This document shows, in pieces, positions 1 to 39,355 of a DNA stretch of 64,000 bases (within the stretch, counting starts at the first letter, position 1; every line of letters begins with the position of its first letter). This DNA comes from a virus: IMG/VR virus record IMGVR_UViG_3300025645_004731, positions 1 through 64,000 of that record; one strand, written 5' to 3'. The position numbers and the translations under genes were made by a program. The notes below the pieces were generated by a model. The model was not told where the DNA came from. It did not search any database and worked only from the letters and a program-made list of their open reading frames with translations.

Positions 1-2
1 GG

Positions 3-224
3 AATGTTATTATGACCGTTGAAGAACTTGGATTAAAAAGTTGCTGTCTTAAAGCATTCAACCCGAAAGCATTGGCTATGATTGACGCAGAGTCAGATGA
101 TGTAATGACTGGATTCAAATGGGAACCGATTATTTTTCTATGTATTGGCGAGGGCGTTCAGCCTAAAGGCGATCACAGAGCGTACAAGCCTAAGGGAATT
201 GTTAACACTTTAAGTTTTCAATAA
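3..224 (+). CDS. Nitroreductase-family protein, C-terminal part (5' end outside window)
   Basis: Frame open from window edge; VEELGLKSCC...EPIIFLCIG resembles the nitroreductase C-terminus (A..LGL.S...LxIG). Confidence 0.55.
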   Translation, partial: NVIMTVEELGLKSCCLKAFNPKALAMIDAESDDVMTGFKWEPIIFLCIGEGVQPKGDHRAYKPKGIVNTLSFQ

Positions 225-804
225 TAGAATTTGCGAAGTCCCGGTGTGCTAACATGCCGGGATGACTGCCATCGTTTGCTCGTGGATGATTTAATTTGAA
301 CTGATTGAATGTCGTGGGAAGCATTACTGTGTTATTCCATGCTGGAGCAGTTGTTGGCTCTATCTGTAGATGATATCTATTTTTACTTAGTAAAAAGCTA
401 TCAACATGATTAATGCGAGTATACATATCCATTAGCATATCATAATCACTGTGTAGATACTCGAAGAACGCCCGATCTCGTTTAGTATTACCTCGATGAT
501 CTATTTGATAATCTGTACTCTCATCTTCGAAAAAGTGATAACGATCCATAAAACTCCAATGTATGAATATCAAATCGTTATACTTAAAATCGAAATTTAA
601 TACACTGTGCCATATATGCTTATTGCTGGCACCACCCAATCCCAGATTAATACATTCCATATCTAGTTTATCTGCCACTAATTGCGGCCAGGCATACTTA
701 CTAGGTTGAGGAAATATGCTGCGATTATTTGTATAATCCCATACATCATCGAGGGCTGTGCCTCTAGTGTAACTACACCCGAATGCTATTACTCTATTTG
801 TCAT
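202..804 (-). CDS. SGNH/GDSL hydrolase-like protein
   Basis: AFGCSYT (block I), NLGLGGASN, DGSHPG (block V); start moved to ATG 804 after GAGGA RBS. Confidence 0.75.
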   Translation of the reverse strand: MTNRVIAFGCSYTRGTALDDVWDYTNNRSIFPQPSKYAWPQLVADKLDMECINLGLGGASNKHIWHSVLNFDFKYNDLIFIHWSFMDRYHFFEDESTDYQIDHRGNTKRDRAFFEYLHSDYDMLMDMYTRINHVDSFLLSKNRYHLQIEPTTAPAWNNTVMLPTTFNQFKLNHPRANDGSHPGMLAHRDFANSIIENLKC

Positions 805-824
805 GTACGATATATCCTCTGTCA

Positions 825-831
825 ATAAATA
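825..831 (+). promoter_or_regulatory. T4-like late promoter (ATAAATA), with a divergent TTAAATA on the minus strand at 842-848
   Basis: Motif lies in the only divergent gap of the enzyme cluster. Confidence 0.5.
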
Positions 832-861
832 GTTATGTATGTATTTAACAAGGAAACAATA

Positions 862-1416
862 ATGCTAATATCAGGCAATAAAAATAAAGGATTAGCGCAG
901 AGTATATCCGCCATATATCCAGACGCGACATTTATCAGCCGCGAATCTGGTCATGACTTGTGTGATTTTTCACAGCAAAAACAATTTGCCAGAATAGCGA
1001 TTGAGCATGATGTAATCATTATCAATAGCGCACTATATCAGTTCGAACAAACTGTGCTACTAGATACAGTATATAAATCGCTGGTGGAGCATCAGAAACA
1101 GGCACATATAGTAGTCATCGGCAGCACTACCGATCGGGTAAAGAACGGCAAAGCCTGGTTATATAATGCGGAGAAGAAAGCGTTACGTGATTATTCAAAT
1201 ACTCTTGCTATCGGTGGAGTCTGGGGAGATCATGCTCCGAAGGTAAGTTATATAAGTTTTGGCACATTAAGCAACAACCAAGAAAAGCATCCAGACAGAA
1301 AATGTCTTGACATTACTGACGCAGCGTGTTATATTAAATGGATAATAGATCAACCAAAGCATCTTAATATAAATGAAATCAGTATAGATCCGATGCAGGC
1401 TAACAAGTGGTATTAA
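862..1416 (+). CDS. Short-chain dehydrogenase/reductase
   Basis: ISGNKNKGLA glycine-rich variant, IINSA, YNAEK (YxxxK); AAGGA RBS before ATG 862. Confidence 0.8.
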   Translation: MLISGNKNKGLAQSISAIYPDATFISRESGHDLCDFSQQKQFARIAIEHDVIIINSALYQFEQTVLLDTVYKSLVEHQKQAHIVVIGSTTDRVKNGKAWLYNAEKKALRDYSNTLAIGGVWGDHAPKVSYISFGTLSNNQEKHPDRKCLDITDAACYIKWIIDQPKHLNINEISIDPMQANKWY

Positions 1417-1420
1417 ATAA

Positions 1421-2533
1421 ATGACCGAAGATTTGAAATGGAGCAACTATGACTTTACTAAAATACCGTTTGACGATGTCGTATCGGTTGGACAGAGAAC
1501 TCTCCTTTACAGAGATATATTTACTGTTTCTTGGCTACTGGGTCGTTTTTGCAATTATAAGTGTAGTTACTGTTGGCCCTATGCACGGTCAGATAGAAAA
1601 GACCATCGTCCTACCGAGTTATGTCTCAGCACAATAGACGAAATAAAGAGACAAGCACGTGGTAATGGTTTTAATAGTTTTCATTTTAGTTTATCTGGCG
1701 GTGAGCCTACTTTTCACCCTGGTTATTTGGACATTCTTAAACATCTTGCGAATGATGTTGATAATACTAATTATACTAGCGTTCACATGACAACAAACAT
1801 GTCACGCAATATGAAGTGGCACAAAGAATACGTAGAAGCAGTTAAGCCGTTCCACCGAGCCAGTATCACAGCTAGTCTACACACAGAACACTTAAATACA
1901 ATTGAGAAGATGCAAGACTTTGCCGATAAATTAATCTTCTGTCAGGAGCACGATGTACAGGTTACAATCAATATGGTTATGGTTCCAAACTGGTTCGAAA
2001 GAGACTGGGAAAACGCCCTGTTCTTCCACGAGCAAGGAATCAACGTCACACTCAAGCCGCAATCAGATCCTACTGCGAGCCGTGTGGTCGATGGTTACAA
2101 AGAGGAAGACTTAAAACGTTTACACAACGGTATGCCACAACGTGCGTACACAGAAAGTAAACGCAAATGGGAAGGTCGACCTAAGCCAAGTTTTCTAATA
2201 CCTACTGGGGTAAATGGAAAAAATGACGCAAGTGTGCCTTGGCATATGCAGATTGAGTTTGAGGACAAGGATGGTAAAAAATGGTACATGGACCAGGCTG
2301 AGAGATTCAATGCTTTCAACTTCAACAACTTTAAAGGCTGGAGTTGTAATTCAGGATATCAAGGAATTATTATTAGAGAGCCTGATGGAAGCATCAAGCG
2401 TAGTTACAGTTGTGCGGATGTACCGCTCGGCAACATAGAAACAGGCTTTAAGTTGTTTGACAAGCCTATGCCATGTATAAGTAATGCATGTGTAAGTAGC
2501 GCAGATAGTAAGATACCCAAACGCAAGATTTAG
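1421..2533 (+). CDS. Radical SAM protein with Cys-containing (twitch/SPASM-like) C-terminus
   Basis: CNYKCSYC, SGGEPT, C-terminal CNSG...DGSI...C...LGNI...C..C. Confidence 0.9.
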   Translation: MTEDLKWSNYDFTKIPFDDVVSVGQRTLLYRDIFTVSWLLGRFCNYKCSYCWPYARSDRKDHRPTELCLSTIDEIKRQARGNGFNSFHFSLSGGEPTFHPGYLDILKHLANDVDNTNYTSVHMTTNMSRNMKWHKEYVEAVKPFHRASITASLHTEHLNTIEKMQDFADKLIFCQEHDVQVTINMVMVPNWFERDWENALFFHEQGINVTLKPQSDPTASRVVDGYKEEDLKRLHNGMPQRAYTESKRKWEGRPKPSFLIPTGVNGKNDASVPWHMQIEFEDKDGKKWYMDQAERFNAFNFNNFKGWSCNSGYQGIIIREPDGSIKRSYSCADVPLGNIETGFKLFDKPMPCISNACVSSADSKIPKRKI

Positions 2534-2557
2534 TTTGGAACGATATGGAGAAATAAT

Positions 2558-3172
2558 ATGGTATTACCACATGAATATATTAAAACTAGCATAGATACAA
2601 GCCAACATTGTCAGCGTAATTGGGATTTGTCAAAATCTGTTACACAAGAAGATTTAGATTTGATGATCCATGCGGCAACGCAGTGTCCAAGTAAGCAAAA
2701 TTTTTCATATTATCGTGTTCATGTTATTACTAATCGCTCAATTATCGAGACTATACATGATTCTACAAGTGGATATATTACGGCAGACGATAAAATGTTA
2801 ACAAACAGCCAGTGTCTGGCAAATGTCTTATTTGCATTCGAAATTGTAGGACCTAGTGATAATAGCAAATCTCATAACAAGAGAACAGAAAATGGAAATA
2901 ATAATCTGATTAGCAGAGATTCGCTTATGGCGATAAGTATTGCTACTGGATATTTAAACTTAACAGCACATATGCTAGGATACTATACGGGATATTGTCA
3001 ATGTTTTGGTAGAGATACAGTGAGTGAAATATTAAATTCAGGCAATATAGAGATATTACTGGGCGTTGGACATAACAATCCAAATTTAGATAGAAAAATA
3101 CATCACTTAACCAGCGATGATGTGTACGCATCATTTACAAAAGAAGTTACTGATGTGATATATTATAAATGA
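2558..3172 (+). CDS. Nitroreductase-family protein
   Basis: CQRNWD, AATQCPSKQN, AHMLGYYTGYC, LLGVG. Confidence 0.8.
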   Translation: MVLPHEYIKTSIDTSQHCQRNWDLSKSVTQEDLDLMIHAATQCPSKQNFSYYRVHVITNRSIIETIHDSTSGYITADDKMLTNSQCLANVLFAFEIVGPSDNSKSHNKRTENGNNNLISRDSLMAISIATGYLNLTAHMLGYYTGYCQCFGRDTVSEILNSGNIEILLGVGHNNPNLDRKIHHLTSDDVYASFTKEVTDVIYYK

Positions 3173-3753
3173 GAAATACTACAGATTTTATTCAACTTGA
3201 TTATCCAACATATGATTTGGAGAGTGAGTTAAACTCATTGCTGAAGAGTGGTGTAATATCTTGGAATACTTATAATGGGCAGATTTGTATTAATGGCGTA
3301 GAAGATGATCCGGATAATCAATCAATTGGATGCGGTAGTTTATATTATGATTGGGACAATTCTTACTACGACGATACTGACAATCTTGTAATACCAAAAA
3401 AGAACATCGTCTATAATGAAGATGATTTTGTAGTATTGAACTCAAATTTTCGTGGTACATTGTTTGAAGATGTGCATAATATGTTAAAAGAAAAACATAA
3501 AATAGGACGGATGCGAGTGATGAAATCCAAGATGAAAACTTGTTTGACGTGGCATAACGATAGCTCTACTAGAATACACTATCCTATCAAGACACAAGAA
3601 GGATGCTTGATGATAATTGAAGATCAGGCATTTCACATGCCGGTTAACACATGGTGGCACACTGATACTACAAAGAAGCACACGGCATTAAATGGTAGTA
3701 CCATCGATAGAATTCATCTTGTTACTTGTATGATCGACGAATATAATGAATAA
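3169..3753 (+). CDS. Asp/Asn beta-hydroxylase-like 2OG-Fe(II) oxygenase
   Basis: WHND...RIHYP...HTALN...RIHLV (HxD...H...R). Confidence 0.75.
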   Translation: MRNTTDFIQLDYPTYDLESELNSLLKSGVISWNTYNGQICINGVEDDPDNQSIGCGSLYYDWDNSYYDDTDNLVIPKKNIVYNEDDFVVLNSNFRGTLFEDVHNMLKEKHKIGRMRVMKSKMKTCLTWHNDSSTRIHYPIKTQEGCLMIIEDQAFHMPVNTWWHTDTTKKHTALNGSTIDRIHLVTCMIDEYNE

Positions 3754-4303
3754 AATTGCGTTAACAGGACATACCTCTGGCCTAGGTCTAGCTATTCACA
3801 CTCAATATCCAATGGCTGTTGGGTTCTCTCGTTCTAATAACTATGACTTACTTAATTCAGATAACATTACTAAGATGTTAGAACAAATTGATGACTGTAA
3901 TATTTTTATCAATAACGCATTCCCTGCGCTCGCCGCAGATAAAGTCGAGGGCATGAGCACACAGCTTGATATATTGTATAAAGTATATCAACTCTGGGAG
4001 CAAGAGAACGATAAGTTAATAATCAACTTAGGATCAAATACTAGTGATGGTATAAAGAAACATATTTGGCCTTATGCTGCTTCAAAAGCTGCTAGTGATA
4101 AGGCATGTGAGCAATTGTCATATATCACATCAGGACCATCGGTTTGCAATTTGCGCTTTGGGTACATTGATATGCCGCATGTCAATGCGTTTGCTCCCAA
4201 TGAAAAGAAATTACCACTAACTACTGCCCTGGCTACAATACAACATATAATTGACTCCTGGCACCAGGGCGCAACAGTGAGAGAGATTACAGTAATACCT
4301 TAA
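3746..4303 (+). CDS. Short-chain dehydrogenase/reductase
   Basis: TGHTSGLG, FINNA, YAASK. Confidence 0.85.
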   Translation: MNKIALTGHTSGLGLAIHTQYPMAVGFSRSNNYDLLNSDNITKMLEQIDDCNIFINNAFPALAADKVEGMSTQLDILYKVYQLWEQENDKLIINLGSNTSDGIKKHIWPYAASKAASDKACEQLSYITSGPSVCNLRFGYIDMPHVNAFAPNEKKLPLTTALATIQHIIDSWHQGATVREITVIP

Positions 4304-4956
4304 TAAGATATCTTATGCTTCTGTATATTGATTTCAATATTTTCGATTGATTCAGTAAAATGTATCGTACATCCGATTTTAGGACCATTCATACGTCCTG
4401 TCGCATGTAACATATCAGCATCAAATAACAAACCTTTTCCTACGGTATACTTCCACGCATATCCTGTTAACCCGTGATATAAATCTTTTGAATACGGCAA
4501 GTATTTGAATAGTTCATCGGAAATTGGGTGGTCTGTGCATCCTTTTACTTCTGGCGAATCGCATGGTCTGCATCGTAAGGATTTGTCATAATACATATCT
4601 TTTAGTTCTTCGTCAGTTTTGTCTGAGAATATATCATGTATCCAACTCATGCCCACATCACTGTCGAGTCTTTGATCAAAAATAACAAACGTCTGATCTG
4701 GATTGTGTGATTCGATAGGGATTAATAGGATAGTCTTCTTGCCTGTCTTCATATCACTATGTACAGCAAACGGGTTAGCATGATTAAATAAGCTACCAAC
4801 AACAACGGTTGATGGGTCGATAAATTCACTGATAATATCTTTAATATCTTCTTTGTCTTCAATGACTGAAACATTTTTCATTGTGTTTTTGTTACCACTT
4901 TGTGATAGCTGTGTAAACTTATCAATGACGGATTGTGTTAAATCTATTTCAAACAT
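4300..4956 (-). CDS. Putative 2OG-Fe(II)/cupin oxygenase
   Basis: VHSD...LHAT; paralogous to the next gene (RPCD, LPY...HGL.G..W...GK.L.F shared). Confidence 0.55.
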   Translation of the reverse strand: MFEIDLTQSVIDKFTQLSQSGNKNTMKNVSVIEDKEDIKDIISEFIDPSTVVVGSLFNHANPFAVHSDMKTGKKTILLIPIESHNPDQTFVIFDQRLDSDVGMSWIHDIFSDKTDEELKDMYYDKSLRCRPCDSPEVKGCTDHPISDELFKYLPYSKDLYHGLTGYAWKYTVGKGLLFDADMLHATGRMNGPKIGCTIHFTESIENIEINIQKHKISY

Positions 4957-5643
4957 TTATATTTCCTTTGTATTAATTGATTGCAATGATGACATAAGAA
5001 CAACACATCCAACCTTAAATTCAGATTGCATAGCAGTACAGTGTAGTTGACTGGACTTAAACATTAATGCTTTGCCCGGCTGTTGATCCCATGTAATGCC
5101 ACTCAGGCCATGATAGAAATCTTCATTGCCGTATGGTAATAATTTTCTAATATGATCCGGAATATCATGCTCGGTTAACCCACTCACATCTTTTGTATCA
5201 CATGGACGTATGCCCGTCAGTACGTCAGACGCCAAGTGATCATTATCTGAGACAGACTTCTGTACTTCATCTGGCACTGCCGGCTTGTGTCTGATATGAT
5301 CTACTCCCTCTAGGCGCCAACTTAGACCGTATTGTTCAAACTGTTGGTCGAAAACTATCAGTGATTGGTTAACGTCTTGCTTTTTATGAAGAGGAACACA
5401 CATGTTATATACACTATCTCTTTTCCACCGATCTACGTGTAATGGAATAGGCTGTGTATGTGCGTATATGTAAGCAGTTTTCATAATGGATGTGTCTAAA
5501 TAGTCACCGAATGCCCGCTCACGTAATTCCTCATCGACGTTCATGTAAAATGGATCAGGATCTGTTGTGATGTCAACATACTGTGAAACGTGATTCAGTA
5601 GAACTTGTATAGAACTGTCTTTTATGTCAATCTCAAATGCCAT
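4957..5643 (-). CDS. Putative 2OG-Fe(II)/cupin oxygenase
   Basis: PLHVD...LHCT; paralog of 4300-4956. Confidence 0.55.
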   Translation of the reverse strand: MAFEIDIKDSSIQVLLNHVSQYVDITTDPDPFYMNVDEELRERAFGDYLDTSIMKTAYIYAHTQPIPLHVDRWKRDSVYNMCVPLHKKQDVNQSLIVFDQQFEQYGLSWRLEGVDHIRHKPAVPDEVQKSVSDNDHLASDVLTGIRPCDTKDVSGLTEHDIPDHIRKLLPYGNEDFYHGLSGITWDQQPGKALMFKSSQLHCTAMQSEFKVGCVVLMSSLQSINTKEI

Positions 5644-6259
5644 CGAAAGTTAAATCTTCCTGTCCATCCAGACTAAACATTAATGCGATACGCGGAGAGT
5701 TACTATTGTTTTCGACCGAGTGAGCAAACCCTGTATTTAAAAAATATGCTTTTCCTGCTTCTAGATTATGGTCTTCTAAGTCGTCCTTGCGTTTAAAAAG
5801 ATTTCTAACTTTTGAATTAGTATAAATTGGAACAATAATTCTAGTGGCATATGTTGGATCATAATCAATATGGAAAGGAATAACTTTTCCAGGTGCTAGT
5901 TTTGTGATACGTACTCGCATTGCCGATGCGCTAAACATATTTACAATTTCTTCGAAATACGATCCCGTGTACAATTCCGTTGGTTTATTGTATCTAGTTT
6001 CCTCACGACGACGAATGCGTTCCTTGACATCGGTAGTGTACTCTAGTTCTTCGCCATTTAGTTCGGTTAAGTTAATTTGTTCAAAGTTGTCGTATACATC
6101 CTTTACGAGTTCCATGTGGTTCTTACATAGCGCTGGATTTGCTGACACAACATCGATAAAGCTAGACGCCGCGGCATCGCATTCGGATTGTAATCTTTCT
6201 AAGTCGAATGTTAAATCAAACTTATGTATACAAGGTAGTTGATGCTTTCTTCTTTTCAT
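5633..6259 (-). CDS. Asp/Asn beta-hydroxylase-like 2OG-Fe(II) oxygenase
   Basis: LAPG..IPFHID...HSVEN...RIALM; GGAG RBS before ATG 6259. Confidence 0.8.
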   Translation of the reverse strand: MKRRKHQLPCIHKFDLTFDLERLQSECDAAASSFIDVVSANPALCKNHMELVKDVYDNFEQINLTELNGEELEYTTDVKERIRRREETRYNKPTELYTGSYFEEIVNMFSASAMRVRITKLAPGKVIPFHIDYDPTYATRIIVPIYTNSKVRNLFKRKDDLEDHNLEAGKAYFLNTGFAHSVENNSNSPRIALMFSLDGQEDLTFDGI

Positions 6260-6863
6260 AGTATTCTCCAATTTCTGTTAGATCGATGCCAGCTTCTAGC
6301 ATCTTGTCTTCATAGTTAATTATATCTGATAGCTTGTGGAATTTTGAAAATGGAAAATCTAAATCTTCGTAGTAGATGACATTTCCTTCTACAGTATCAA
6401 GTTGGTCTTTAATATAAAAAAATTGATCTAAAGATTTTTTTAAATCAATTTTCGTGTTAATATTTATAGTCCTAGCCGCGGAGACATCCATTATGCCGGC
6501 AGTCTTCCAGTTTGCCAATTCTTGCCACATAAAACTAAGAGCCCATTTCCAGATGCCTCTGCGTTTAAGAACAAGAATCTCGTCGTTTTCGTAAAAATCC
6601 TTAAACCAGTTGTTATAGTAATCATAATCCGGAGTAATCAGATAATTGATATGGTGCTTGAACGTATAGTTAATGCCTTTTTTCTTTTCAAGATTTAAAA
6701 AGTCAATTTTTTCCGAAAGGCTAGTTTCGGGCATAATATCTGGATTTAAGAACTCTGCCTTTTGATGAGGTTTTCTAACTGATGGATCGTTTAAGTTTTC
6801 GATGTCGATATGTTCATACACATACGAACTGCCTGTTCTCGGGCCGCCTATTAATACTTTCAT
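6222..6863 (-). CDS. Sulfotransferase-like P-loop protein
   Basis: GGPRTGSS (PAPS-binding loop), LKRR...ALS, IYYEDL. Confidence 0.65.
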   Translation of the reverse strand: MKVLIGGPRTGSSYVYEHIDIENLNDPSVRKPHQKAEFLNPDIMPETSLSEKIDFLNLEKKKGINYTFKHHINYLITPDYDYYNNWFKDFYENDEILVLKRRGIWKWALSFMWQELANWKTAGIMDVSAARTININTKIDLKKSLDQFFYIKDQLDTVEGNVIYYEDLDFPFSKFHKLSDIINYEDKMLEAGIDLTEIGEYYEKKKASTTLYT

Positions 6864-7462
6864 GTTATTTCGTCTGAACTTATAATCAAGTCTGAGTTAG
6901 GTTTCCATATAAAATCTGGATCATTCAATCTGATACTATACACGTACTGTACAATAGGTCCAGTCTTAAATAGAAAATCTGTTTCAAGTTGGAGACTAGT
7001 GTACCACTCACTATCGGTCCACTCATTAAAACTTTTGACTGTCATTTTCTTTTTTCGTTGATATAATGCGTTGATGGCACGTTTTGTAATATCATGTGTG
7101 ATATACAGAATTTCGAAGCCTCGTTGTCTTGCCCACTTGAGTTGATGTTCGCCCATTCTTAATCCACAATGTGTGAATCTATATTCCTTGAGAATGTGAT
7201 ATCGACAAATTCGGACAGCAATATCAGGATCGTTTGTATAATGAGAAGCCTCTGCCGCGGAGATTGAAATAAGTTTATCTCCTATGAAGCACATCCAGGT
7301 TTCAATATTCTTATCATCCGGATCATATGACCGTGCGCTGTATTTTTTAAGACTGTCATTGCCTTCTTCGATACTTTTCTTTGCGAAATCCCATATTAAC
7401 TCACGATATGCGTCTGGATCTTCGCTGTATTTACAGATCGAAATGTTCGGTTGTGATTGCAT
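6860..7462 (-). CDS. GNAT-like acyltransferase
   Basis: RYHILKEYRFTHCG...WARQRG...INALYQR resembles GNAT motifs A/B. Confidence 0.55.
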   Translation of the reverse strand: MQSQPNISICKYSEDPDAYRELIWDFAKKSIEEGNDSLKKYSARSYDPDDKNIETWMCFIGDKLISISAAEASHYTNDPDIAVRICRYHILKEYRFTHCGLRMGEHQLKWARQRGFEILYITHDITKRAINALYQRKKKMTVKSFNEWTDSEWYTSLQLETDFLFKTGPIVQYVYSIRLNDPDFIWKPNSDLIISSDEIT

Positions 7463-8225
7463 ATTCTTTGTACCTATTCCAGCTTTTTTCTAATAATTTA
7501 TGCCATTTTGGCATATCATATACGCCATGTACGACAAGTTGAACTCTATCTCGCATATCAAATCCACGATTGACACCATGCTCATATACCGCACCGTCGT
7601 ATGCGAAAGCATTTGTTTCAGGCGGCAGCATTGGATATACTTGTGTCGCGTCACTATTTTTTGTCATATAAAAGTGCTCTTCGCGCCAGTCTGTCACCTT
7701 ACTCCATCTAAAATGTAAGTGACTGGGCGCTTGAAGTTTAAGTACTTCTGCCATACCCAACTCTTCATCATAGTGAGCAGGGATAGCAGAGGGAGCTTGG
7801 ACAAAAAACGCTTGGTGTATTGTTTCAAAAGGTAAATTCTCAATGTAGTCAACAACATGTCCAAGTTCTTCTTTGGCAAAATCAAACCAGTCGGGGTGCT
7901 CTCCTGCCATTCCACATTGGTTTGGCTTTAGAAATATAAGTGAGCCGGTATTCTTTGTTACATAAAAGTTCTTCTGAAGATCGGGATCTTCGGCCAATGT
8001 CGCTATCTGGTCCATATCTATATCCAATATAGGAAGATCAATCGGAGACCATACCATATCTCTGTATCCTGTATATTCTTCGTCGATAGACAAATATTCA
8101 TATGTGGGCCGATCAATTTTTACCGCACAGCCCGGATCATCGTTTAGATAACGACGGATGGGTATACCATCTTCATTGAATTTAATATCATTTTTCTTAA
8201 TATGATAGTTAGCTGTATTGAACAT
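7431..8225 (-). CDS. Putative 2OG-Fe(II) oxygenase
   Basis: IPAHYD...YEHGV...RVQL. Confidence 0.55.
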   Translation of the reverse strand: MFNTANYHIKKNDIKFNEDGIPIRRYLNDDPGCAVKIDRPTYEYLSIDEEYTGYRDMVWSPIDLPILDIDMDQIATLAEDPDLQKNFYVTKNTGSLIFLKPNQCGMAGEHPDWFDFAKEELGHVVDYIENLPFETIHQAFFVQAPSAIPAHYDEELGMAEVLKLQAPSHLHFRWSKVTDWREEHFYMTKNSDATQVYPMLPPETNAFAYDGAVYEHGVNRGFDMRDRVQLVVHGVYDMPKWHKLLEKSWNRYKEYAITTEHFDL

Positions 8226-8763
8226 CCAGTATAGTCCTTTTCTTACATGGTATATCTAGCGATAGATGATGTATTATATGCGTATATTTATCAGTAAAAT
8301 ATTGTAAGTTTGTGTATTCAAAGTCTTCAATGTTGTCATCGCTTACTTCGTGAATAATAGCTCTCTTGGGCTGATAAAAATAGCATATATCCTCGAACAG
8401 TTTTTTAGGATCATCTACATATATTAATACGCTACTGAATAATACAACATCTACTTTAAAGTTCGGAGTATATAAATTTTCCCATGATCTGACATCGAAC
8501 TTCTTACTAGGATATAGTTTCTTTGCTAATTCGATTGGACCAGGACTAGTATCGATCCCGTAGTAATTGTATGTATAATCTTTCAAATAATTGTTGATTG
8601 TTCCTGTACGGCATCCTATGTCAACAATACCTGTTAGCTGATGCTTGCGTATTAATGATGCCTGATAACTATATATCGGCGCAGCGCCGTCACCGTCCAG
8701 ATATGACATTTCTGATATATCATATATTTCACGTAGGTGTGATTTGCTGATAGTCACAGGCAA
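8209..8763 (-). CDS. Class I SAM-dependent methyltransferase
   Basis: VDIGCRTG, GIDTS, DVVLFSSVLIYV. Confidence 0.85.
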   Translation of the reverse strand: MPVTISKSHLREIYDISEMSYLDGDGAAPIYSYQASLIRKHQLTGIVDIGCRTGTINNYLKDYTYNYYGIDTSPGPIELAKKLYPSKKFDVRSWENLYTPNFKVDVVLFSSVLIYVDDPKKLFEDICYFYQPKRAIIHEVSDDNIEDFEYTNLQYFTDKYTHIIHHLSLDIPCKKRTILDVQYS

Positions 8764-9541
8764 TTCTCCATAACAATCTATTCGGATCGGAGACCGGAGT
8801 ACGTCTATGTAGTGTCGTGAATTGATCCATCAATAACAAATCGCCTTGCTTAAATATGTGGTGGTACTGGTACTTAGATTTAAATATAATATTTTGTAAT
8901 GACTGAATCATAACTTCATGATCAATTACTTGCTTGCCTTGCCATGCTTTTGAAATGAAATGATAAGGAAAATAGAAATACTCCTGTCCAGATACTGGAT
9001 GTTCGCCGACTAACGATCTAATTGAGCCTTTATTTTTTGACATAAACTCAAGTTCTGGGTCATCTTCTTCGAGATGATACATTGTATTGTTTTTAAACTT
9101 GATACGAATCTTAATGCTACGCCAATAATCTTGTTCTTCATTACTTAATGTTTCAAATGGTATAGCAGTATTACAAACGCTTAGAGTTGTATTAATATCT
9201 TCATTTATGCAGTATAGCCCAATAAGTATCTTATCTATGTTATGTCTACTATTGCCATTGCTGTGCCATCCTAGCTCAGTATCGCCGAACATACCTATCT
9301 TATTGCCCTTATCGTCACGTTTCGCCGTTACCAGAAATATCTCTGGATAATCTGTTGGGTTCATGAAAAGGTCTGGTTTTTCGCATTCTCCGAAACGTTT
9401 CATGGTCGAAATGTAAGTTTCTTCGGACAATGATTGGTCATAGCCTACTGCAATACCAACTTTTTGTATATCAGATGCTAGTTCCTTGAGTTCCGTGTCG
9501 TTATATTCAGATATTGATTTTGATAATATTTTTGGTATCAT
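8729..9541 (-). CDS. TauD/TfdA-family dioxygenase
   Basis: GWHSNG, HPVSG, GDLLLMDQFTTLHRR, RLLWR. Confidence 0.85.
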   Translation of the reverse strand: MIPKILSKSISEYNDTELKELASDIQKVGIAVGYDQSLSEETYISTMKRFGECEKPDLFMNPTDYPEIFLVTAKRDDKGNKIGMFGDTELGWHSNGNSRHNIDKILIGLYCINEDINTTLSVCNTAIPFETLSNEEQDYWRSIKIRIKFKNNTMYHLEEDDPELEFMSKNKGSIRSLVGEHPVSGQEYFYFPYHFISKAWQGKQVIDHEVMIQSLQNIIFKSKYQYHHIFKQGDLLLMDQFTTLHRRTPVSDPNRLLWRIACDYQQITPT

Positions 9542-9555
9542 TACTTACTTTCCTA

Positions 9556-10332
9556 TTATTGCTGATACATATACTTGATTATATCTGCTAGACATAATCT
9601 ATTAGTATAGTTTCGGTAGAATTTTTTATATTCTGGGTCATCGGATGTTGCTAGCCATAGTACATCAGACGGTGTCATATTTAACTGATTGCATATTTCG
9701 CCCTGGTACTTGTTTAGTGTGTTATATACTATTTCGGTGTCGAAATGTTCAATAATTGTTTCTCCTAACCTCATACTGTGATAGTTATAATATTTTGCGC
9801 TATTTTGTAATAAATCAAGACGAAAATCTGGCTCTCTTGTCCAACAGTATCCAATTCTATAATTTCTTAATCCAAATGTTTTGCTTAAACTAAAGAACAC
9901 GCGTTCCACATTATCTGGTATCATGATATTGCGCATTGGTGTACTGCCGACATATGCCAGGTCCAGTACTACTGGAATATCAACAGGTATATCAACATAA
10001 TTGCCGTCGTAGCTTGCTGGGTTACTTAGATACAACACCTCGCCATCTTCTTTGCCACTTACCCATTGATAATCATCAGTTGCCATTTTAATTGTACGTT
10101 TTTCTTGCCACATCCAGTAATTCATTGCCTCGGTAATACCATTAGTGGCATAAAGATGCTCGAATGAGGATAGATCACATATTGGAGCAATCCATTCGGT
10201 GATATCACTAGTAAACTTCTTAACTTCGTCGTGTTGAATAAGAGTATGTTTGCTGACTACATCTTGGACTGGCGCAATTGGAAATGTTCTGATTGCTAGA
10301 CTTTGATTGAGGATAATATCTTTGAAATCCAT
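9556..10332 (-). CDS. PLP-dependent aminotransferase class I/II-like enzyme
   Basis: NGITEA, LSNP, LDLAY, SLSKTFGL...RIG. Confidence 0.85.
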   Translation of the reverse strand: MDFKDIILNQSLAIRTFPIAPVQDVVSKHTLIQHDEVKKFTSDITEWIAPICDLSSFEHLYATNGITEAMNYWMWQEKRTIKMATDDYQWVSGKEDGEVLYLSNPASYDGNYVDIPVDIPVVLDLAYVGSTPMRNIMIPDNVERVFFSLSKTFGLRNYRIGYCWTREPDFRLDLLQNSAKYYNYHSMRLGETIIEHFDTEIVYNTLNKYQGEICNQLNMTPSDVLWLATSDDPEYKKFYRNYTNRLCLADIIKYMYQQ

Positions 10333-10992
10333 CTACGGTTTTCCCGAATTAGATTGAAAAATCCCGTATTTAATAAACTTCTCTGCGACCCAACCACCAC
10401 TATCGAATCGATGTAATCGTAGGCGTCTAAAGTTGTTATGATGATTGAGGTGATAACCTTCGCCCGCAATCAGTAAATTGAGCCACGGCTGATTACTTGG
10501 TACTGGATAATGACATACCGTGTTTAATAATCCAAATCCTACTTTTGCGTGTATGAATGGTATAAGAGCAAATGCTACAAACAGTTTTGGACTTATTAAT
10601 ATTGTAATAAGCCATACCGCAATCCATATCTTACGCCAATGTTTATGACAAAATACAAGTCTAGGATTGGCATACAGGTCCTTAGCAAACTTTGGCGAAA
10701 TCTTAGGAATGCTCCAGGTTGTAGTAAGTACCTTGAAAATCCCAGAATGGACTGGAGAATGTGGATCATGTTCCGTGTCGGAGTAAGCATGATGAATTCT
10801 GTGTGAAGATATCCAGCCAATCGGAGTACGAATTACTGCGATCATTAGCATTCCGAGACCAATTACTTCAAACCAAACTGGTGCAGAGAACTGCTTATGA
10901 CAGAAGTAACGATGTAACAGTATTGATGCTCCAAAATGAGAAATTACAGTGCTCCATAGTAATCCTAATATTATAACTAGTGTCCAACTCAT
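10333..10992 (-). CDS. Membrane fatty-acid (acyl-CoA/delta-9-like) desaturase
   Basis: His boxes HRYFCH, HRIHH, GEGYHLNHH; hydrophobic segments; start at ATG 10992 overlapping the upstream stop. Confidence 0.9.
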   Translation of the reverse strand: MSWTLVIILGLLWSTVISHFGASILLHRYFCHKQFSAPVWFEVIGLGMLMIAVIRTPIGWISSHRIHHAYSDTEHDPHSPVHSGIFKVLTTTWSIPKISPKFAKDLYANPRLVFCHKHWRKIWIAVWLITILISPKLFVAFALIPFIHAKVGFGLLNTVCHYPVPSNQPWLNLLIAGEGYHLNHHNNFRRLRLHRFDSGGWVAEKFIKYGIFQSNSGKP

Positions 10993-11708
10993 TTTATTTC
11001 CTTTAGTATATCTATTGATTCTTCCCATGTTTGAGAACAACTCTCAAAATTAATATTCGCAATCACACGATGCTGAGTCCCTGTGTTGATAGCTTCATGC
11101 CATTGTTTGACATTCCATAGTACGGGCCTATCAGTTAGCGCATAACGACATGCTGCGTCATCGTCGGATAATAAGAATCTCTCGTTGTTCTTTTTATAAG
11201 TTTGCCAGTAATATTCACTATAGTATACTCCTTGTGTAGGATCTGTGGGAACATACCCATCAACATCTTCGAATTCCGGCCATGATGTGATTGTATTCTC
11301 GTCGCATCCGGCGATAGGAAAAATAAGCGATGCGACAGATGATGTATAGTGATGTCTGTGGCAGAAGAATAAGTGTTCAACCTTTTTAAATCTTGGATCT
11401 GTAGGATCAGACTGGAAAAATTTAATTGCGCTCGAAAATCCGAAATTGCTTAATGTATCACTTAATTCCTTGTATTTTGGAATATCTGACAGATAAACTA
11501 CTTGCATAAGTGGCTTATCTGGATCAAACAATCTATAATGTTTTTTAATATTGTCTTTGAAGAATTTAGTCTCTGGCTTTTGCGTGAATATATTTGGCAA
11601 ATGAGAAAACACTTCTAGGCATTGTTTATGAATCCATTGAAGACGTGGCGTCACCTCTGGCTCATAAACAAATGGACTTGATAATTTTGGGTTTGTTATT
11701 ACTGGCAT
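10989..11708 (-). CDS. Putative cupin/2OG-like oxygenase
   Basis: CHRH...SLIFP...WHEAIN...RVIAN. Confidence 0.5.
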   Translation of the reverse strand: MPVITNPKLSSPFVYEPEVTPRLQWIHKQCLEVFSHLPNIFTQKPETKFFKDNIKKHYRLFDPDKPLMQVVYLSDIPKYKELSDTLSNFGFSSAIKFFQSDPTDPRFKKVEHLFFCHRHHYTSSVASLIFPIAGCDENTITSWPEFEDVDGYVPTDPTQGVYYSEYYWQTYKKNNERFLLSDDDAACRYALTDRPVLWNVKQWHEAINTGTQHRVIANINFESCSQTWEESIDILKEIK

Positions 11709-11716
11709 GATACTAT

Positions 11717-12571
11717 TTATATCGCCATATTTGCTTTAATACTGGGCATTGGATCATAGCCGTCAAGTATATAGTCAGTTGGCTTAGTAGAGATTAATTC
11801 TTTCAGTGTATTAAACGCTGGCATCTGTAATGTTGGACCAGTCATTGCTTTTCGCTCTAACTGTTGGTTAACTTGTTCCATATGATTACTATAGATGTGG
11901 CAATCGCCGCCAGTCCATATAAACTCACCTACTTCTAGGTCGCATAGTTGAGCAAACATATGTGTTAGTAGACTATAACTAGCAATGTTAAATGGTACGC
12001 CCAAAAACATATCGGCGCTGCGTTGATATAATTGGCAGCTTAGTCGACCATTAATAACCCGAAACTGTGCCATAGTGTGACACGGAGGCAATGACATGAC
12101 GGGAATATCAGGAACATTCCAGGCACTTAGGATAATACGTCTACTATCAGGATCGTTTTTGATTTGGTCTAGAATAATATCAATCTGATCAACACCGCCG
12201 AAATCGCGCCATTGTTTACCATACACTGGTCCTAAATCTTTATTGGTATCGCTATTAAAGTGACCAAGCGCCACTCCTTGAGCATCCGCGTTAGCAGTCC
12301 AGATAGTTTTCTTGCCGATTAAATTATCCTTGGTATCATCATAATGAATCTCTGCTAGGCGTCTTTCATTCATGCTGCCCTCTAAGAACCACAACAACTC
12401 ACTCACTACACTGCGCCACGCTAGTCGCTTAGTTGTGACTGCCGGAAAGCCGTCTCTAAGGTCAAAACGCATTTGGTGACCGAACACAGTCCGAGTACCG
12501 GTCCCTGTGCGATCACTTACGTCTTCGCCTGTATTCAAAATGTGTTGGAGTGATTCTAAGTATTGCTTCAT
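11717..12571 (-). CDS. thyA: Thymidylate synthase
   Basis: DRTGTGT, ELLWFL, LPPCH, YQRSADMFLGVPFN; uninterrupted. Confidence 0.97.
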   Translation of the reverse strand: MKQYLESLQHILNTGEDVSDRTGTGTRTVFGHQMRFDLRDGFPAVTTKRLAWRSVVSELLWFLEGSMNERRLAEIHYDDTKDNLIGKKTIWTANADAQGVALGHFNSDTNKDLGPVYGKQWRDFGGVDQIDIILDQIKNDPDSRRIILSAWNVPDIPVMSLPPCHTMAQFRVINGRLSCQLYQRSADMFLGVPFNIASYSLLTHMFAQLCDLEVGEFIWTGGDCHIYSNHMEQVNQQLERKAMTGPTLQMPAFNTLKELISTKPTDYILDGYDPMPSIKANMAI

Positions 12572-12957
12572 AGTTTGCCTTCTGCTCTTAATTGTGCTCT
12601 GATTTTTGTAGCACTTATATCATGTATTGTAGCACCCATATCATGTTCTGTCAAGCTATATCCTACACCGCGGCCATAGCTGATGTCCACTATATTAGGA
12701 ACCTTGGCTACTTCATATTCTTTGTGTAAGGTATATCCATGCTCGACTAAACCCGCTACAATGTTCTTCTTTACATCATAGTAATCATATGGGTTATCAG
12801 CCTGACCTGGTCCAGCATCTTGACCCTGGACATCACGGCACATGATAATAACCTGCCCTGTTAGTTCTAATGATTTTACGAATAGAGCAGTGTGACCATC
12901 ATGCCACGGCTGCCATCTTCCCAACATTTGTACTGTGGGTGCTTTAAAATCAAACAT
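12568..12957 (-). CDS. Small HxGH nucleotidyltransferase (cytidylyltransferase-like)
   Basis: GRWQPWHDGH, ISATKIR. Confidence 0.8.
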   Translation of the reverse strand: MFDFKAPTVQMLGRWQPWHDGHTALFVKSLELTGQVIIMCRDVQGQDAGPGQADNPYDYYDVKKNIVAGLVEHGYTLHKEYEVAKVPNIVDISYGRGVGYSLTEHDMGATIHDISATKIRAQLRAEGKL

Positions 12958-13405
12958 TTATACATGAGCCATTTGAGGTAATACCTGATTTAACAGCAGC
13001 ATATCGTTGCACTACCTGATGTAAAACCTCATGCGTATCCGTAAACCATTCACTGACATGATAATCATAATGATCTGGCGTAATGTACATTTTGTTGGTA
13101 TCTGCGTAGCGACTTTCCGAAATAGTATCCATCAATACTGTAAAATCAGCATTGAATAGTTCTCGTGTTTCGTGAGTAGGACACACAAAATCACATACAG
13201 CAATCTTATCAGCCATCACTACACCATCGGCTAACATACTCATGCGCATTGATTGTCGTGCTCTGCCGAATATACTAAAATCCCAATCGTCGTATCGTGT
13301 GCGAACATCATCAGCATTAATCCAAACACCGCCTAGTAATTTAGCCAATGGTCTAGCAAGAGTGCTTTTGCCACTGCCCGGCAATCCCATAATCAATATC
13401 TTCAT
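12950..13405 (-). CDS. Adenylylsulfate kinase-like P-loop kinase
   Basis: GLPGSGKST, NADDVR, DFS..GR..Q, FVCP. Confidence 0.75.
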   Translation of the reverse strand: MKILIMGLPGSGKSTLARPLAKLLGGVWINADDVRTRYDDWDFSIFGRARQSMRMSMLADGVVMADKIAVCDFVCPTHETRELFNADFTVLMDTISESRYADTNKMYITPDHYDYHVSEWFTDTHEVLHQVVQRYAAVKSGITSNGSCINV

Positions 13406-13884
13406 CGTTTGCTCCATACATCTACATACACATCCCCGCGTATGCCGCTATCGGTTAAGGTAAATTTTTCTTCTATCAATGTACGTGGTAAGAAAGTATC
13501 ACAGTCGTATGAGCCGCGTATTTGACTTAGATGAATTTCGTCAATGATTGAAAGCAATCCTTCAACTAGTTTTGCTCCACCAATAATCCAAACATCTTGT
13601 AGTTTGTTCATGTTAGTAAGGTCAGTCTTGGCATTATCAAATTTAATATAATGATATCCGCCCTTATCTTTATCTTGTGCACTACTAGTGATAACGATGT
13701 TATTACGATTAGGTAGTGGCTTACGTGGTAAACTATCCCACGTAGATTTTCCCATTGCTACTACGCCACCAGTAGTACATTCTTTGAACCATTTCAGATC
13801 CGCTGGGTTGTGAGGCCAAGGAAGGGTACCGGCTTTACCGATACCCCAATCTGCGTCACACGCTAGTATTGCCTTTATCATCAT
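13402..13884 (-). CDS. folA: Dihydrofolate reductase
   Basis: GIG...LPW...DLKWFK, MGKSTWDSL, PLPNR, IIGG. Confidence 0.95.
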   Translation of the reverse strand: MMIKAILACDADWGIGKAGTLPWPHNPADLKWFKECTTGGVVAMGKSTWDSLPRKPLPNRNNIVITSSAQDKDKGGYHYIKFDNAKTDLTNMNKLQDVWIIGGAKLVEGLLSIIDEIHLSQIRGSYDCDTFLPRTLIEEKFTLTDSGIRGDVYVDVWSKR

Positions 13885-15161: not shown

Positions 15162-15172
15162 TATTTATTTAT
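15162..15172 (-). promoter_or_regulatory. Late-type promoter (ATAAATA, tandem)
   Basis: GATAAATAAATA upstream of the long minus-strand run 15125-4300. Confidence 0.45.
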
Positions 15173-16733: not shown

Positions 16734-16764
16734 CTGATGATCTCCTGATTCATATTATATATCT

Positions 16765-16793
16765 ATCATACACCATTATGTTGGCAATGTCAA
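16765..16793 (-). promoter_or_regulatory. sigma70-type promoter
   Basis: TTGACA-17 nt-TATGAT. Confidence 0.75.
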
Positions 16794-16806
16794 GCATTAT
16801 TATACG

Positions 16807-17961: not shown

Positions 17962-17996
17962 AGTGTATTCTCCTGGTATATTTTGATTACTCTGCT

Positions 17997-18025
17997 ATGA
18001 TAGCAGGAAGATATTTCATTGTCAA
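17997..18025 (-). promoter_or_regulatory. sigma70-type promoter
   Basis: TTGACA-17 nt-TATCAT. Confidence 0.7.
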
Positions 18026-18040
18026 GCTTTATTTTAACTT

Positions 18041-22622: not shown

Positions 22623-22630
22623 TATTTATA
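22623..22630 (-). promoter_or_regulatory. T4-type late promoter TATAAATA
   Basis: Perfect match 30 nt upstream of the fibre gene. Confidence 0.7.
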
Positions 22631-38396: not shown

Positions 38397-38399
38397 GAG

Positions 38400-39122: not shown

Positions 39123-39355
39123 GTGATCTTCCTTTTGATAAATTTAATTATGTAACTGCCTTGAGTACGACTTAATCTATATTCTCGTACCTTGGCATTT
39201 GAATGTAACCATATTTCTATTTCTTGTTTAATCAGGCCTTGTCCGCAAATGATTTCACAAGATTTATACTTACTATAATAGCATGTATTCAGGAAGATGT
39301 CAACCTTTTTCCACGCATTATGTAAAGTTAAACCATGTAAATCGAGTTTTTGCAT
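39119..39355 (-). CDS. Stand-alone Smr-domain protein
   Basis: LDLHGLT...EIICGQG...GSY. Confidence 0.8.
   Translation of the reverse strand: MQKLDLHGLTLHNAWKKVDIFLNTCYYSKYKSCEIICGQGLIKQEIEIWLHSNAKVREYRLSRTQGSYIIKFIKRKIT

Follow-up and report, generated by a model that had tools for sequence, protein, structure and literature searches.

The first 11.7 kb of the 64,000-nucleotide stretch of viral DNA analysed here (the window, i.e. positions 1 to 64,000 of IMG/VR record IMGVR_UViG_3300025645_004731) hold a set of modifying enzymes without a scaffold gene, a description that the sequence-only reading of the window had offered and that is supported by the complete lack of non-ribosomal peptide synthetase (NRPS), polyketide synthase (PKS) and adenylation domains in the 90.6 kb contig. 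Judged by comparison with related loci, the cluster is a conserved, mobile unit and not a random capture hotspot; nor is it a natural-product pathway with a missing synthase. It seems probable (at roughly 0.65) that the block works as one functional module on a substrate made beforehand, for which a ribosomally made protein or peptide is the most likely, if still tentative (about 0.3), candidate, the phage's own receptor-binding fibres or virion proteins coming first.

The map of open reading frames (ORFs) agrees with the earlier count of 18 contiguous, mostly overlapping genes: positions 3-11708 are filled by o01 to o18, gaps nowhere exceed 24 nt, and starts and stops often overlap. The module has two arms, a conserved minus-strand operon (o18 to o09, with o08 beside it; 11708-4300) and a rearrangeable plus-strand arm (o03 to o07; 835-4303), which converge with a 4-nt overlap at 4300-4303; o02 is divergent from o03.

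Scans of IMG/VR with o18 and o09 yielded 13 loci from 12 contigs (of up to 251 kb), hereafter the jumbo-type set. In all 13, the order o18-o17-o16-o15-o14-o13-o12-o11-o10-o09 is kept on one strand at 41-82% identity, with o08 next to it on the opposite strand, o04 (83-86%) just upstream, and o03, o05, o06 and o07 nearby but rearranged. Random shuffling among relatives, which the sequence-only reading had named as the mark of a gene-capture hotspot, is therefore not what is found, content and order being kept throughout this set. The DNA polymerases encoded on two of the contigs share 57% and 53% identity with that of the window, and these contigs are for that reason assigned to its lineage. 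In the closest relative (L060), thyA adjoins o06, not o18. The orientation of o08 differs: in the window it is that of o09, but in all 13 related loci the gene is on the other strand and points the same way as o07/o06; it thus seems that a single gene has been inverted between paralogues.

A scan with o15 gave 40 further viral loci, which together with Pelagibacter phage Mosig EXVC030M (T4-like, Kyanoviridae) make up a T4-like set of 41, many of them cut by contig ends. Counted by tblastn (E ≤ 1e-5, 50% coverage), o10 and o14 are each present in 39 of these o15-selected loci, o17 in 35, o16 in 34, o12 in 23 and o13 in 13; nearly all module genes lie on one strand, in several orders and with extra TauD paralogues among them. 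Mosig is the sole match for o15, and likewise for o17 and o10, among 50,697 GenBank phage records (against which a megablast of 1-11708 gave no match), while the o15 peptide pattern occurs in only five contigs of metagenome-assembled genomes (MAGs; one genome each, among 185,579 prokaryotic species), which hold several module genes each and the viral status of which is not established.

Three gene fusions join members of the set. A TauD-methyltransferase fusion of 488 aa (loci L028 and L029) combines a TauD paralogue (7.9e-23) with Methyltransf_25, a fusion of 353 aa (L023 and L025) links a protein resembling short-chain dehydrogenases/reductases (SDR-like) to an AspH-like one of the o06 family, and a GNAT-SET protein of 334 aa (L046:13216-14220) has an o12-type GNAT and a SET domain (38.1 bits, cut-off 22.4) in one chain. 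The contig of the last fusion (349.5 kb, from a MAG labelled 'bacterium') also carries three TauD-like, two desaturase, AspH-like and pyridoxal phosphate (PLP) enzyme genes; it is not established as viral, the only DNA-polymerase match of this MAG being on another contig. It is because of the order kept in 13 of 13 loci, the co-occurrence in the 41, the three fusions and the start/stop overlaps that the block is regarded as one module.

Six module proteins (o17, o16, o15, o14, o12 and o10) are 40-69% identical between the window and Mosig, against 28% for the DNA polymerases, and no other window ORF of at least 100 aa matches the 69 kb of Mosig compared. From these identities it therefore appears that the module moves laterally between phage lineages, or came to both from one source.

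Enzymes of the block

Family assignments are well supported for ten of the 18 ORFs, whereas three are weak (o02, o03 and o07), four stand at motif level or are a hint only (o08, o09, o11 and o18), and o01 is left without assignment; the earlier observation itself holds, but it named more families than can be supported. Pfam matches above the curated cut-off were obtained for seven ORFs (o04, o05, o06, o10, o14, o15 and o17); o12 and o13 were assigned by predicted fold (AlphaFold2 models made from alignments of phage homologues), and o16 by profile and motifs. PHROGs gave no match for 12 of the 18 ORFs, Pfam (E ≤ 10) and NCBIfam (E ≤ 0.1) no credible family for o08, o09, o11, o13 and o18, and PDB profile searches with o12, o13, o18, o08/o09 and o11 returned noise only, as did hhalign of o13, o18 and o09 against an AspH-like alignment (probabilities below 1%). 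Of the seven cupin/2-oxoglutarate (2OG) oxygenases originally counted, four could be verified and three are suspected only.

An unexpected detail concerns o15 (8729-9541, minus strand), a TauD/TfdA-family oxygenase (PF02668, 2.1e-19, 70.9 bits against a cut-off of 27; residues 13-260 on positions 22-266 of the 267 in the profile) that is 69% identical to its Mosig homologue. The 2-His-1-carboxylate triad H-x-D/E...H is absent from it: H93-S-N95 replaces H-x-D, aligning with WHTD of RdpA (6d1o), and N95 is invariant in 23 of 23 sequences, i.e. o15 and 22 aligned phage homologues or paralogues. The distal H245 is kept, and the invariant R255 and R259 align with the R...R pair (2OG C5 carboxylate) of RdpA/TauD-like chains. 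A search of 1.84 billion representative proteins with the o15-family profile gave 3027 matches; the best 150, in which the motif was scored, comprise 89 HxN, 28 HxD, 9 HxA, 3 HxH, 1 HxG and 1 HxC sequences, the remaining 19 being fragments that are not scorable. HxA and HxG are the signature of Fe/2OG halogenases. The H-x-N clade may have unusual metal chemistry, and is a candidate for new non-haem iron chemistry. No paper describing such a TauD clade was found in the literature search, and 'asparagine' does not occur in what the search lists for a 2013 review on atypical sites of non-haem iron.

The two cupins of Asp/Arg-hydroxylase type both belong to PF05118 (cut-off 22.6 bits): o06 (3169-3753, plus; 6.4e-8, 33.0 bits) and o10 (5633-6271, minus, probable start 6259; 2.5e-8, 34.3 bits). 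The o10 protein is 56% identical to that of Mosig; in its family, H134, D136, H184 and R119 are invariant in 18 sequences, and the H-x-D...H of o06 aligns with this family. The reaction predicted from PF05118 membership would be hydroxylation of Asp/Asn in a protein or of a lipid acyl chain; o06 additionally has a weak NCBIfam match to TIGR04531 ('putative nonproteinogenic amino acid hydroxylase', 1.6e-3), and neither protein matches an NCBIfam lipid A or ornithine-lipid model at E ≤ 0.1. The model of o13 (7431-8225, minus; pLDDT 83.5) has the double-stranded beta-helix of an Fe(II)/2OG oxygenase (P4H/PolD/PHD/AspH-like; Foldseek probability 0.99-1.00), with invariant H151-Y-D153, H216 and R227. 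In the VIA comparison all of the best 50 rows are Fe/2OG oxygenases (Z 8.9-6.5), headed by L-proline cis-4-hydroxylase, PolD, Dictyostelium PHD, EvdMO1 and AspH (Z 8.9-8.1).

The GNAT-fold acyl/acetyltransferase o12 (6860-7462, minus; pLDDT 86.4, Foldseek GNAT matches at E 2.5e-8 and probability 1.00) is the most conserved protein of the block. Its relatives form 251 sequence clusters, the best 120 listed being 59-100% identical to it; no fused form longer than 350 aa was found, which is weak evidence. Next to o13, o14 (8209-8763, minus) is a class I S-adenosylmethionine (SAM) methyltransferase (Methyltransf_11, 1.3e-11). The o16 gene (9556-10332, minus) encodes a PLP enzyme that is short and has the aminotransferase class I/II fold (HisC/CobD-like); its profile finds, in the PDB, L-threonine-O-3-phosphate decarboxylase (1.9e-4) and histidinol-phosphate aminotransferases (1.8e-3); it has FFSxSKxFG with K151, and D124, Y127, S148, S150, K151 and R245 are invariant. 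A membrane Delta9-type fatty-acid desaturase (FA_desaturase, PF00487, 1.2e-7, 32.2 bits against 29.7) is encoded by o17 (10333-11040, minus), with a probable start at 10992 (an ATGA overlap with the o18 stop), giving ~219 aa. Its His boxes H27-x4-H32, H64-R-x-H67-H68 and H181-x2-H184-H185 are invariant in 14 sequences, and it is the sole protein of 27 with hydrophobic 19-mers (three). Delta9 desaturation of lipid-bound C16/C18 chains is predicted for it, the activity itself having been demonstrated for other viral desaturases only.

Two further well-supported proteins belong to the plus-strand arm. The radical SAM protein o04 (1421-2533; Radical_SAM, 2.8e-15; CNYxCSYC and GGEPT) has a C-terminal Cys-rich, twitch-like extension with conserved C309, C352 and C357; its best NCBIfam model is N_Twi_rSAM (9e-12, below cut-off), its PDB similarity is generic (viperin, QueE, PqqE), and its identity is 67% in the T4-like loci. 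It is followed by o05 (2558-3172), a nitroreductase-family flavoprotein (Pfam 2e-7, 31.8 bits against 23.5). In contigs of a marine DNA run (X10, depth ~95), 2521-2600 are replaced by 38 other letters and 2628-2937 are skipped, from which it follows that a commoner marine relative has another o04/o05 junction and is without part of the nitroreductase gene. The second of the two nitroreductases counted in the sequence-only reading was not found: o01 (3-224, plus), the 73-aa 3' end of an ORF cut by the contig end, has no similarity to o05, no Pfam family and no relative among the locus ORFs at E ≤ 0.01, which rules it out as a nitroreductase.

The remaining assignments are weaker. The short SDR-like proteins o03 (835-1416, plus) and o07 (3746-4303, plus) are paralogues, in which TGxxxGxG-like and YxxxK motifs can be read. 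For o03 (193 aa) the ATG at 862, with an AAGGA ribosome site, is probably the true start (184 aa); it has a YNAEK motif and matches SDR_TniO_fam of NCBIfam at 4.4e-6 (far below cut-off) and adh_short at 0.017, and its orthologues are 56-69% identical in five jumbo-type loci. For o07, adh_short is at 0.0081 (below cut-off), with TGHTSGLG and YAASK, and the orthologue in L060 is 72% identical. The names sulfotransferase and SGNH could not be verified at family level. What stands of the former is an invariant P8-R9-x-G11-S12-S13 and K100-R101...S110 (a PRxGSS...RR..S-type pattern) in o11 (6222-6863, minus), P-loop sulfotransferase-like by this motif only, without a match in Pfam, NCBIfam or PDB and restricted to the jumbo-type set (13 of 13 loci). 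Of the latter, o02 (202-825, minus) retains weak candidacy as an SGNH-like hydrolase/acyltransferase, with the motifs GCS (nucleophile), GGASN and DGSH, matches to DUF6071 (E 0.0023, 18 bits, below the cut-off of 27) and to the NCBIfam diglucosylglycerate octanoyltransferase (E 0.038), and weak relatives in 11 loci and Mosig. The paralogues o08 (4300-4956, minus) and o09 (4957-5643, minus; 28% identity, E 7e-26) have an H-x-D...H motif, with H69, D71 and H201 of o09 invariant in 13 sequences; none of their 85 relatives has a Pfam family, and no PDB relative was found by profile. Finally o18 (10989-11708, minus), the first gene of the conserved block, has an HRHH...WHE...H pattern and a mean column identity of 81% in seven sequences. 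Profile searches found no PDB relative for it, its nearest embedding neighbours are viral hypotheticals, and the nearest named families (PF05118 and 2OG-FeII_Oxy_3, language-model cosine 0.89) provide a lead only.

Substrate of the module

Condensation (PF00668), ketosynthase (PF00109) and AMP-binding (PF00501) domains had no match in the 90.6 kb contig (~24% of the genome), while the controls were positive; the absence of a visible NRPS or PKS, noted earlier for the window, therefore holds for the whole contig, in which a missing scaffold synthase of either kind is ruled out. The window starts at base 1 of the record, with the truncated o01 at that edge, and nothing to the left of it can therefore be inspected; the operon of relatives extends upstream by three to five radical SAM genes and a PP-loop gene. 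As for a precursor of a ribosomally synthesised and post-translationally modified peptide (RiPP), no free space of more than 24 nt exists in 835-11708 (ORFs below 50-60 aa were not searched), and the small ORFs found close to the module of relatives differ from lineage to lineage.

A scaffold gene would be superfluous if the scaffold were already made by the infected cell. The cupin/2OG enzymes would hydroxylate side chains, after which the new or existing groups would be methylated (o14), acylated (o12) and possibly sulfated (o11), the 3'-phosphoadenylyl sulfate (PAPS) for the last step coming from o21, which resembles adenylyl-sulfate (APS) kinases; in relatives, radical SAM steps would be added.

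Several lines of evidence argue for a protein as the target. The SET domain is known only as a protein-lysine methyltransferase, and in L046 it is fused to an o12-type GNAT. Two genes of the block belong to the PF05118 Asp/Asn-hydroxylase family, and the structural neighbours of o13 include protein prolyl and aspartyl hydroxylases. In three relatives (L048, L055 and L059), four to five more radical SAM genes lie upstream in the same operon as the block, three of these genes with SPASM above cut-off and one with a B12-binding domain. The module also lies near genes for host recognition: in Mosig (neck genes at 37983-39614, fibres at 44.7-54.5 kb) it occupies 54.7-60.9 kb beside tail-fibre genes, in L055 a receptor-binding protein (Mtd_N, 27.1 against 26.3 bits) directly follows o08, and a weak LtfC-like fibre family is near the module in 17 of 59 loci. 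In the window, the cluster and a collagen-like fibre gene have a common late-promoter layout. This fibre (18342-22592, minus; 1416 aa; PHROG tail-fibre families down to 2.9e-102) is a candidate protein substrate: it has four blocks of G-X-Y triplets (GTN, GVD, GID, GIQ, GET), with many Asn, Asp and Gln residues in third place and separated by a repeated 'QGDAYxVQxDDSLxVWDG' module, and its gene has a local G+C of 53.5% against ~40% elsewhere. The lack of NRPS, PKS and adenylation domains in the contig points the same way, as does the match between the components of the block and a prediction made for bacterial operons by Iyer et al. 2010 (PMC2938197, in the part of that paper covered here).

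A number of findings weigh against a protein target. The core includes a membrane Delta9-type desaturase (the o17 family is present in 52 of the 59 loci) with no obvious role on a protein, and the PLP aminotransferase-fold, SDR-like and nitroreductase proteins are met more often in the chemistry of small molecules or sugars. The module is not accompanied by any conserved gene that might encode its substrate: an ORF with at least eight G-X-Y triplets was found in none of the 59 flanks, and collagen-like repeats in only two of five whole records (the complete Mosig genome having none), which rules out the collagen-like fibre as a universal partner, and the tail-collar domain PF07484 has no match in the contig. 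The SET fusion was found in one of six records searched, and that on the contig not established as viral, while o13 has free-proline, nucleoside and sugar oxygenases equally among its neighbours. SPASM is absent from the window, o04 having a twitch-like Cys set without SPASM match. In general, synteny among related phages is a weaker sign of shared function than in bacteria.

The desaturase is most readily accommodated if the module remodels a host envelope lipid or glycolipid (a membrane lipid, an aminolipid or one of lipopolysaccharide (LPS) type) late in infection, which is a realistic possibility, though well short of even odds. Acyl chains would be desaturated by o17 and hydroxylated by the AspH/LpxO-type cupins, PF05118 also including the lipid hydroxylases LpxO and OlsC, while amination, reduction, methylation, acylation or sulfation would alter the head groups or sugars, with a superinfection block or membrane tuning as a conceivable purpose. 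The intact His boxes and hydrophobic segments of o17, a core protein, fit this, and the SGNH-like o02 would be accounted for. The companions fit as well. In a census in which the ORFs of the 59 loci were clustered (near-identical loci kept in), the recurrent families were an NADPH-FMN reductase (30 loci), a redoxin (22), further radical SAM proteins (19), the LtfC-like fibre mentioned above, 2OG-FeII_Oxy_3 (13) and a GDP-mannose-dehydratase/epimerase-like family (10), none of these being in the window. The reductase and redoxin, together with the window nitroreductase, could feed or protect O2-dependent enzymes, and the GDP-mannose-type gene would suit work on sugars, as would the verified DegT-type sugar aminotransferase (252.6 bits) that flanks the Mosig module, with a carbamoyltransferase and a methyltransferase annotated beside it, and an RfaE-like heptose kinase/adenylyltransferase gene of the window (36501-37277, outside the cluster; PHROG 7878, 6e-30). 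In yeast, related viral desaturases proved to have Delta9 activity on lipids (Roitman et al. 2017, PMC5776448), and LPS genes are concentrated in the variable island of pelagimyophages, for which surface modification against co-infection has been proposed (PMC7029224; both papers as far as covered). Against an envelope substrate, only o17 of the 18 proteins has hydrophobic segments, the others looking soluble; the SET fusion and SPASM enzymes point elsewhere; and the lipid A and ornithine-lipid models fail to recognise o06 and o10. GT2 glycosyltransferases are absent from five records including the complete Mosig genome (DegT being found in one of five), so that a phage-made glycan via GT2 enzymes is rejected for these records, other glycosyltransferase families not having been searched.

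Alternatively, the enzymes would hydroxylate, methylate or acylate a metabolite that is free in the host cell (amino acid, polyamine or nucleoside) and would itself be the scaffold; what results might be an osmolyte or a signal, or else a toxin or an inhibitor. Small molecules are the substrates of RdpA, TauD, ScoE and CarC, the TauD/TfdA relatives in the PDB, the best rows of o13 include free-proline hydroxylases, PolD and ectoine hydroxylase, the weak TIGR04531 match of o06 points to amino acids, and a HisC/CobD-like PLP fold with SDR-like, nitroreductase, GNAT and methyltransferase proteins is the usual small-molecule set; moreover, the array of 10 tandem dioxygenases in Syn9 was read as secondary-metabolite genes by Iyer et al. 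2010 (PMC2938197, part covered). A metabolite nonetheless seems unlikely, with the block holding no transporter, ligase or synthase, the desaturase and SET fusion left unexplained, and no obvious use for such a product when expression is late and beside fibre genes. It is also rather doubtful that the genes share no pathway at all and are independent auxiliary functions inherited stably in a row, as T4-like marine phages have them in their hypervariable islands, the desaturase then acting on membranes and the oxygenases either serving repair or shifting host nitrogen signalling by consuming 2OG. A mosaic structure of such islands is on record (PMC7029224), and modulation of 2OG levels or DNA repair was proposed for cyanophage 2OG oxygenases by Sullivan et al. 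2010 (PMC3037559; both in part). The order is indeed permuted between lineages, paralogues and cassettes come and go, o08 is inverted, and phage synteny can persist without shared function. Yet the same five to seven families stay together, despite re-ordering, across phages with 28% identical DNA polymerases, three fusions join members of the set, reading frames overlap through the block, and the families are tight and apparently phage-borne, Mosig being the sole match for o15, o17 and o10 among the 50,697 phage records and the o15 pattern occurring in only five MAG contigs.

Hypermodification of a DNA base, which the sequence-only reading had suggested from the nearby thyA and DHFR, is highly improbable. 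It is true that thyA, DHFR and a P-loop kinase gene adjoin the block in one unit, that the operon of the relatives with additional radical SAM genes holds a PP-loop/QueC-like gene (29.3 bits), and that radical SAM, PLP, GNAT, methyltransferase and AlkB-like folds occur in known base-modification pathways. However, thyA passes the NCBIfam equivalog cut-offs for an ordinary thymidylate synthase (348.8 against 327 bits), which rules it out as a hydroxymethylase and makes the idea weak, and its adjacency is lineage-specific (in L060 it is beside o06, and the Mosig module lies among tail-fibre genes). The o21 kinase is APS-kinase-like rather than a DNA kinase, the membrane desaturase has no place in such a pathway, and TGT was found in none of three viral records of relatives, of which one has a completeness of 71% (no search for it was made in the contig of the window).

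Coming back to the protein target, a more far-reaching, and speculative, proposal would be that marine and estuarine phages share a transferable kit for the hypermodification of ribosomal surface proteins (their own receptor-binding fibres or virion proteins), in which the H-x-N TauD-like clade, not described before, takes part. The modifications would be hydroxylation, methylation and acylation, perhaps also sulfation or halogenation, and the iron-binding carboxylate of the TauD-like enzymes would be replaced by Asn, or by Ala, Gly or His in sister clades. If true, phages would have in this kit an equivalent of the maturation of collagen and RiPPs, and host range would be determined at an additional, new level.

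Transcription and genome context

The cluster appears, from the placement of its motifs, to be read from T4-late-type promoters together with the late genes. A late-promoter-like ATAAATA lies at 825-831 (plus), ~31 nt before the ATG at 862; an exact TATAAATA at 11714-11721 (minus) lies 5 nt before the o18 ATG and overlaps the thyA stop; and a tandem ATAAATA at 15162-15172 (minus), ~36 nt before the ATG at 15125 with its AGGAG site, is probably the head of a minus-strand unit that takes in DHFR, a kinase pair and thyA before reaching o18. The fibre gene has the layout of the ATG at 862, with TATAAATA at 22623-22630, ~31 nt before its ATG, and AGGAG; (T)ATAAATA 31-36 nt upstream followed by a Shine-Dalgarno sequence is thus common to the fibre gene and the ATGs at 862 and 15125. 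In three of the seven relatives printed, ATAAATAG precedes o18, where the upstream gene is o04, not thyA. The earlier observation that late-type motifs head the transcription units is borne out by position, and by position only, because TATAAATA is not over-represented in the window (5 found against 5.7 expected). Sigma-70-like sites (TTGACA-17-TATGAT/TATCAT; minus) lie at 16740-16800 and 17965-18030; in contrast to the cluster and the fibre gene, it is these that precede o26/o27, i.e. an HNH-endonuclease-like gene (15519-16733) and an ATPase gene (16849-17961). Parts of the cluster are matched at ≥99% identity by contigs from three metatranscriptome libraries, each of a different study; these contigs are no proof of transcription, because DNA can occur in such libraries, and they cannot rank genes.

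Upstream of thyA, o21 (12950-13417, minus) is a P-loop kinase resembling adenylyl-sulfate kinases, with 2yvu, a probable APS kinase, as its best PDB match (E 4.2e-4, residues 4-87), NCBIfam APS-kinase models at 6e-6 to 1e-4 (all below cut-off) and PHROG 10255, 'kinase'; it is a possible PAPS supplier for o11. The 230 positions of PHROG 10255 extend over 12568-13417 and are divided between two overlapping ORFs, o21 (2-121) and o20 (124-228), which is no local frameshift, because L060 has the same form. The o20 product weakly resembles NMN/pantetheine-phosphate adenylyltransferases.

The record is linear and 90,615 bp long, with a CheckV completeness of 24%. Its phage origin is confirmed by a family-B DNA polymerase that is nearest to those of jumbo phages of 350-490 kb, at 42-49% identity (Sinorhizobium phage Phosso 49%, Atu_ph07 46%, 121Q/GAP32 type 42%), and 'jumbo phage' is a fair description on these grounds; endolysins are encoded in the window as well, next to the fibre, thyA and DHFR genes already named. 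In the relatives the polymerase gene takes other forms: that of the 251-kb relative (G001:C1:131589-136670) is in three separate pieces and that of the 120-kb relative (G003:C1:47622-50444) reads through two TAA codons, which suggests that elements have been inserted or that the genes are split. Outside the cluster, the window has a second radical SAM gene (34202-35350; PHROG 14086, 7e-14). A tRNA-Ile (anticodon TAT) at 26624-26717 (minus) is located inside a 451-aa ORF (25877-27232) that has no PHROG match; this ORF is probably not a gene as listed. The stretch is present in runs labelled freshwater metagenome (shares of 0.72-1.00) and marine metagenome (0.34-0.63), of which the best holders may be the source sample; uncovered bins in the metatranscriptome runs carry no information.

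Comparison with known systems

The general phenomenon, i.e. tandem arrays of oxygenases and radical SAM enzymes in the variable islands of marine myophages, is already in print. An account of the module itself, of its occurrence in a jumbo phage or of its lateral spread was not found in the literature search, outside of which supplementary files remained; module genes may appear in Table S4 and Fig. S4 of PMC7029224 or among the contig files of PMC5776448. The closest cultured counterpart is the Mosig locus Mosig_00072-00082 (MT647606), in which the genes, annotated individually, are co-linear and co-oriented (desaturase, short aminotransferase-like, TauD-like, methylase, N-acetyltransferase-like and Asp_Arg_Hydrox); the window phage, with its 28% identical DNA polymerase, is of another, jumbo lineage. 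According to the part of PMC7029224 covered, the host-recognition cluster (HRC) of pelagimyophages is an extensive and hypervariable island in which tail fibres, radical SAM cassettes and LPS genes are found, and an Asp/Asn beta-hydroxylase is core to these phages; that part names no such module and gives no function to it. The position of the HRC, from VrlC to the neck gene gp14 and with the fibres, is that of the Mosig module, and not that of the window block, which lies between the contig end and thyA/DHFR, 6.6 kb from the fibre gene, and adds o18, o13, o11, o09 and o08.

With respect to function, the nearest precedent is that of Iyer et al. 2010 (PMC2938197, in the part covered), where bacterial operons with a beta-hydroxylase, a dioxygenase-methyltransferase fusion, a sulfotransferase, a PAPS synthetase, an acetyltransferase and an AlkB-like dioxygenase were predicted to act, by hydroxylation followed by sulfation, on co-encoded collagen-like or tail-collar proteins. 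In common with these operons are o06/o10, o15 with o14 (fused in L028/L029), o12 and o13; a collagen-like protein is encoded nearby in the window. The differences are that the fused dioxygenase is of TauD type here and of PhyH type there, that the sulfotransferase (o11) stands at motif level and the PAPS kinase (o21) below threshold, that the contig has no tail-collar domain and the collagen-like protein is no constant companion, and that the desaturase, PLP enzyme and radical SAM enzyme are extra. No paper on tail-fibre hydroxylation was found in the literature search. The desaturase itself can be compared with the cyanophage vFAD (Roitman et al. 2017, PMC5776448, part covered): both are of the membrane DesC/SCD type with HX4H and HX2HH and occur in marine myophages, whereas o17 is short (~219 aa), always heads a multi-enzyme block and, at E ≤ 1e-5, has a match in Mosig only and in no cultured cyanophage record.

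Compared with these systems, a diffuse observation on the many 2OG oxygenases and radical SAM enzymes of marine phages that lack an assigned role, known since ~2010, is narrowed to a block of 6-11 genes that is conserved, crosses unrelated phage lineages and is abundant in ocean metagenomes, as the number of GNAT sequence clusters indicates. With its core present in a cultured pair, Mosig on Pelagibacter ubique HTCC1062, the question of the substrate is directly testable.

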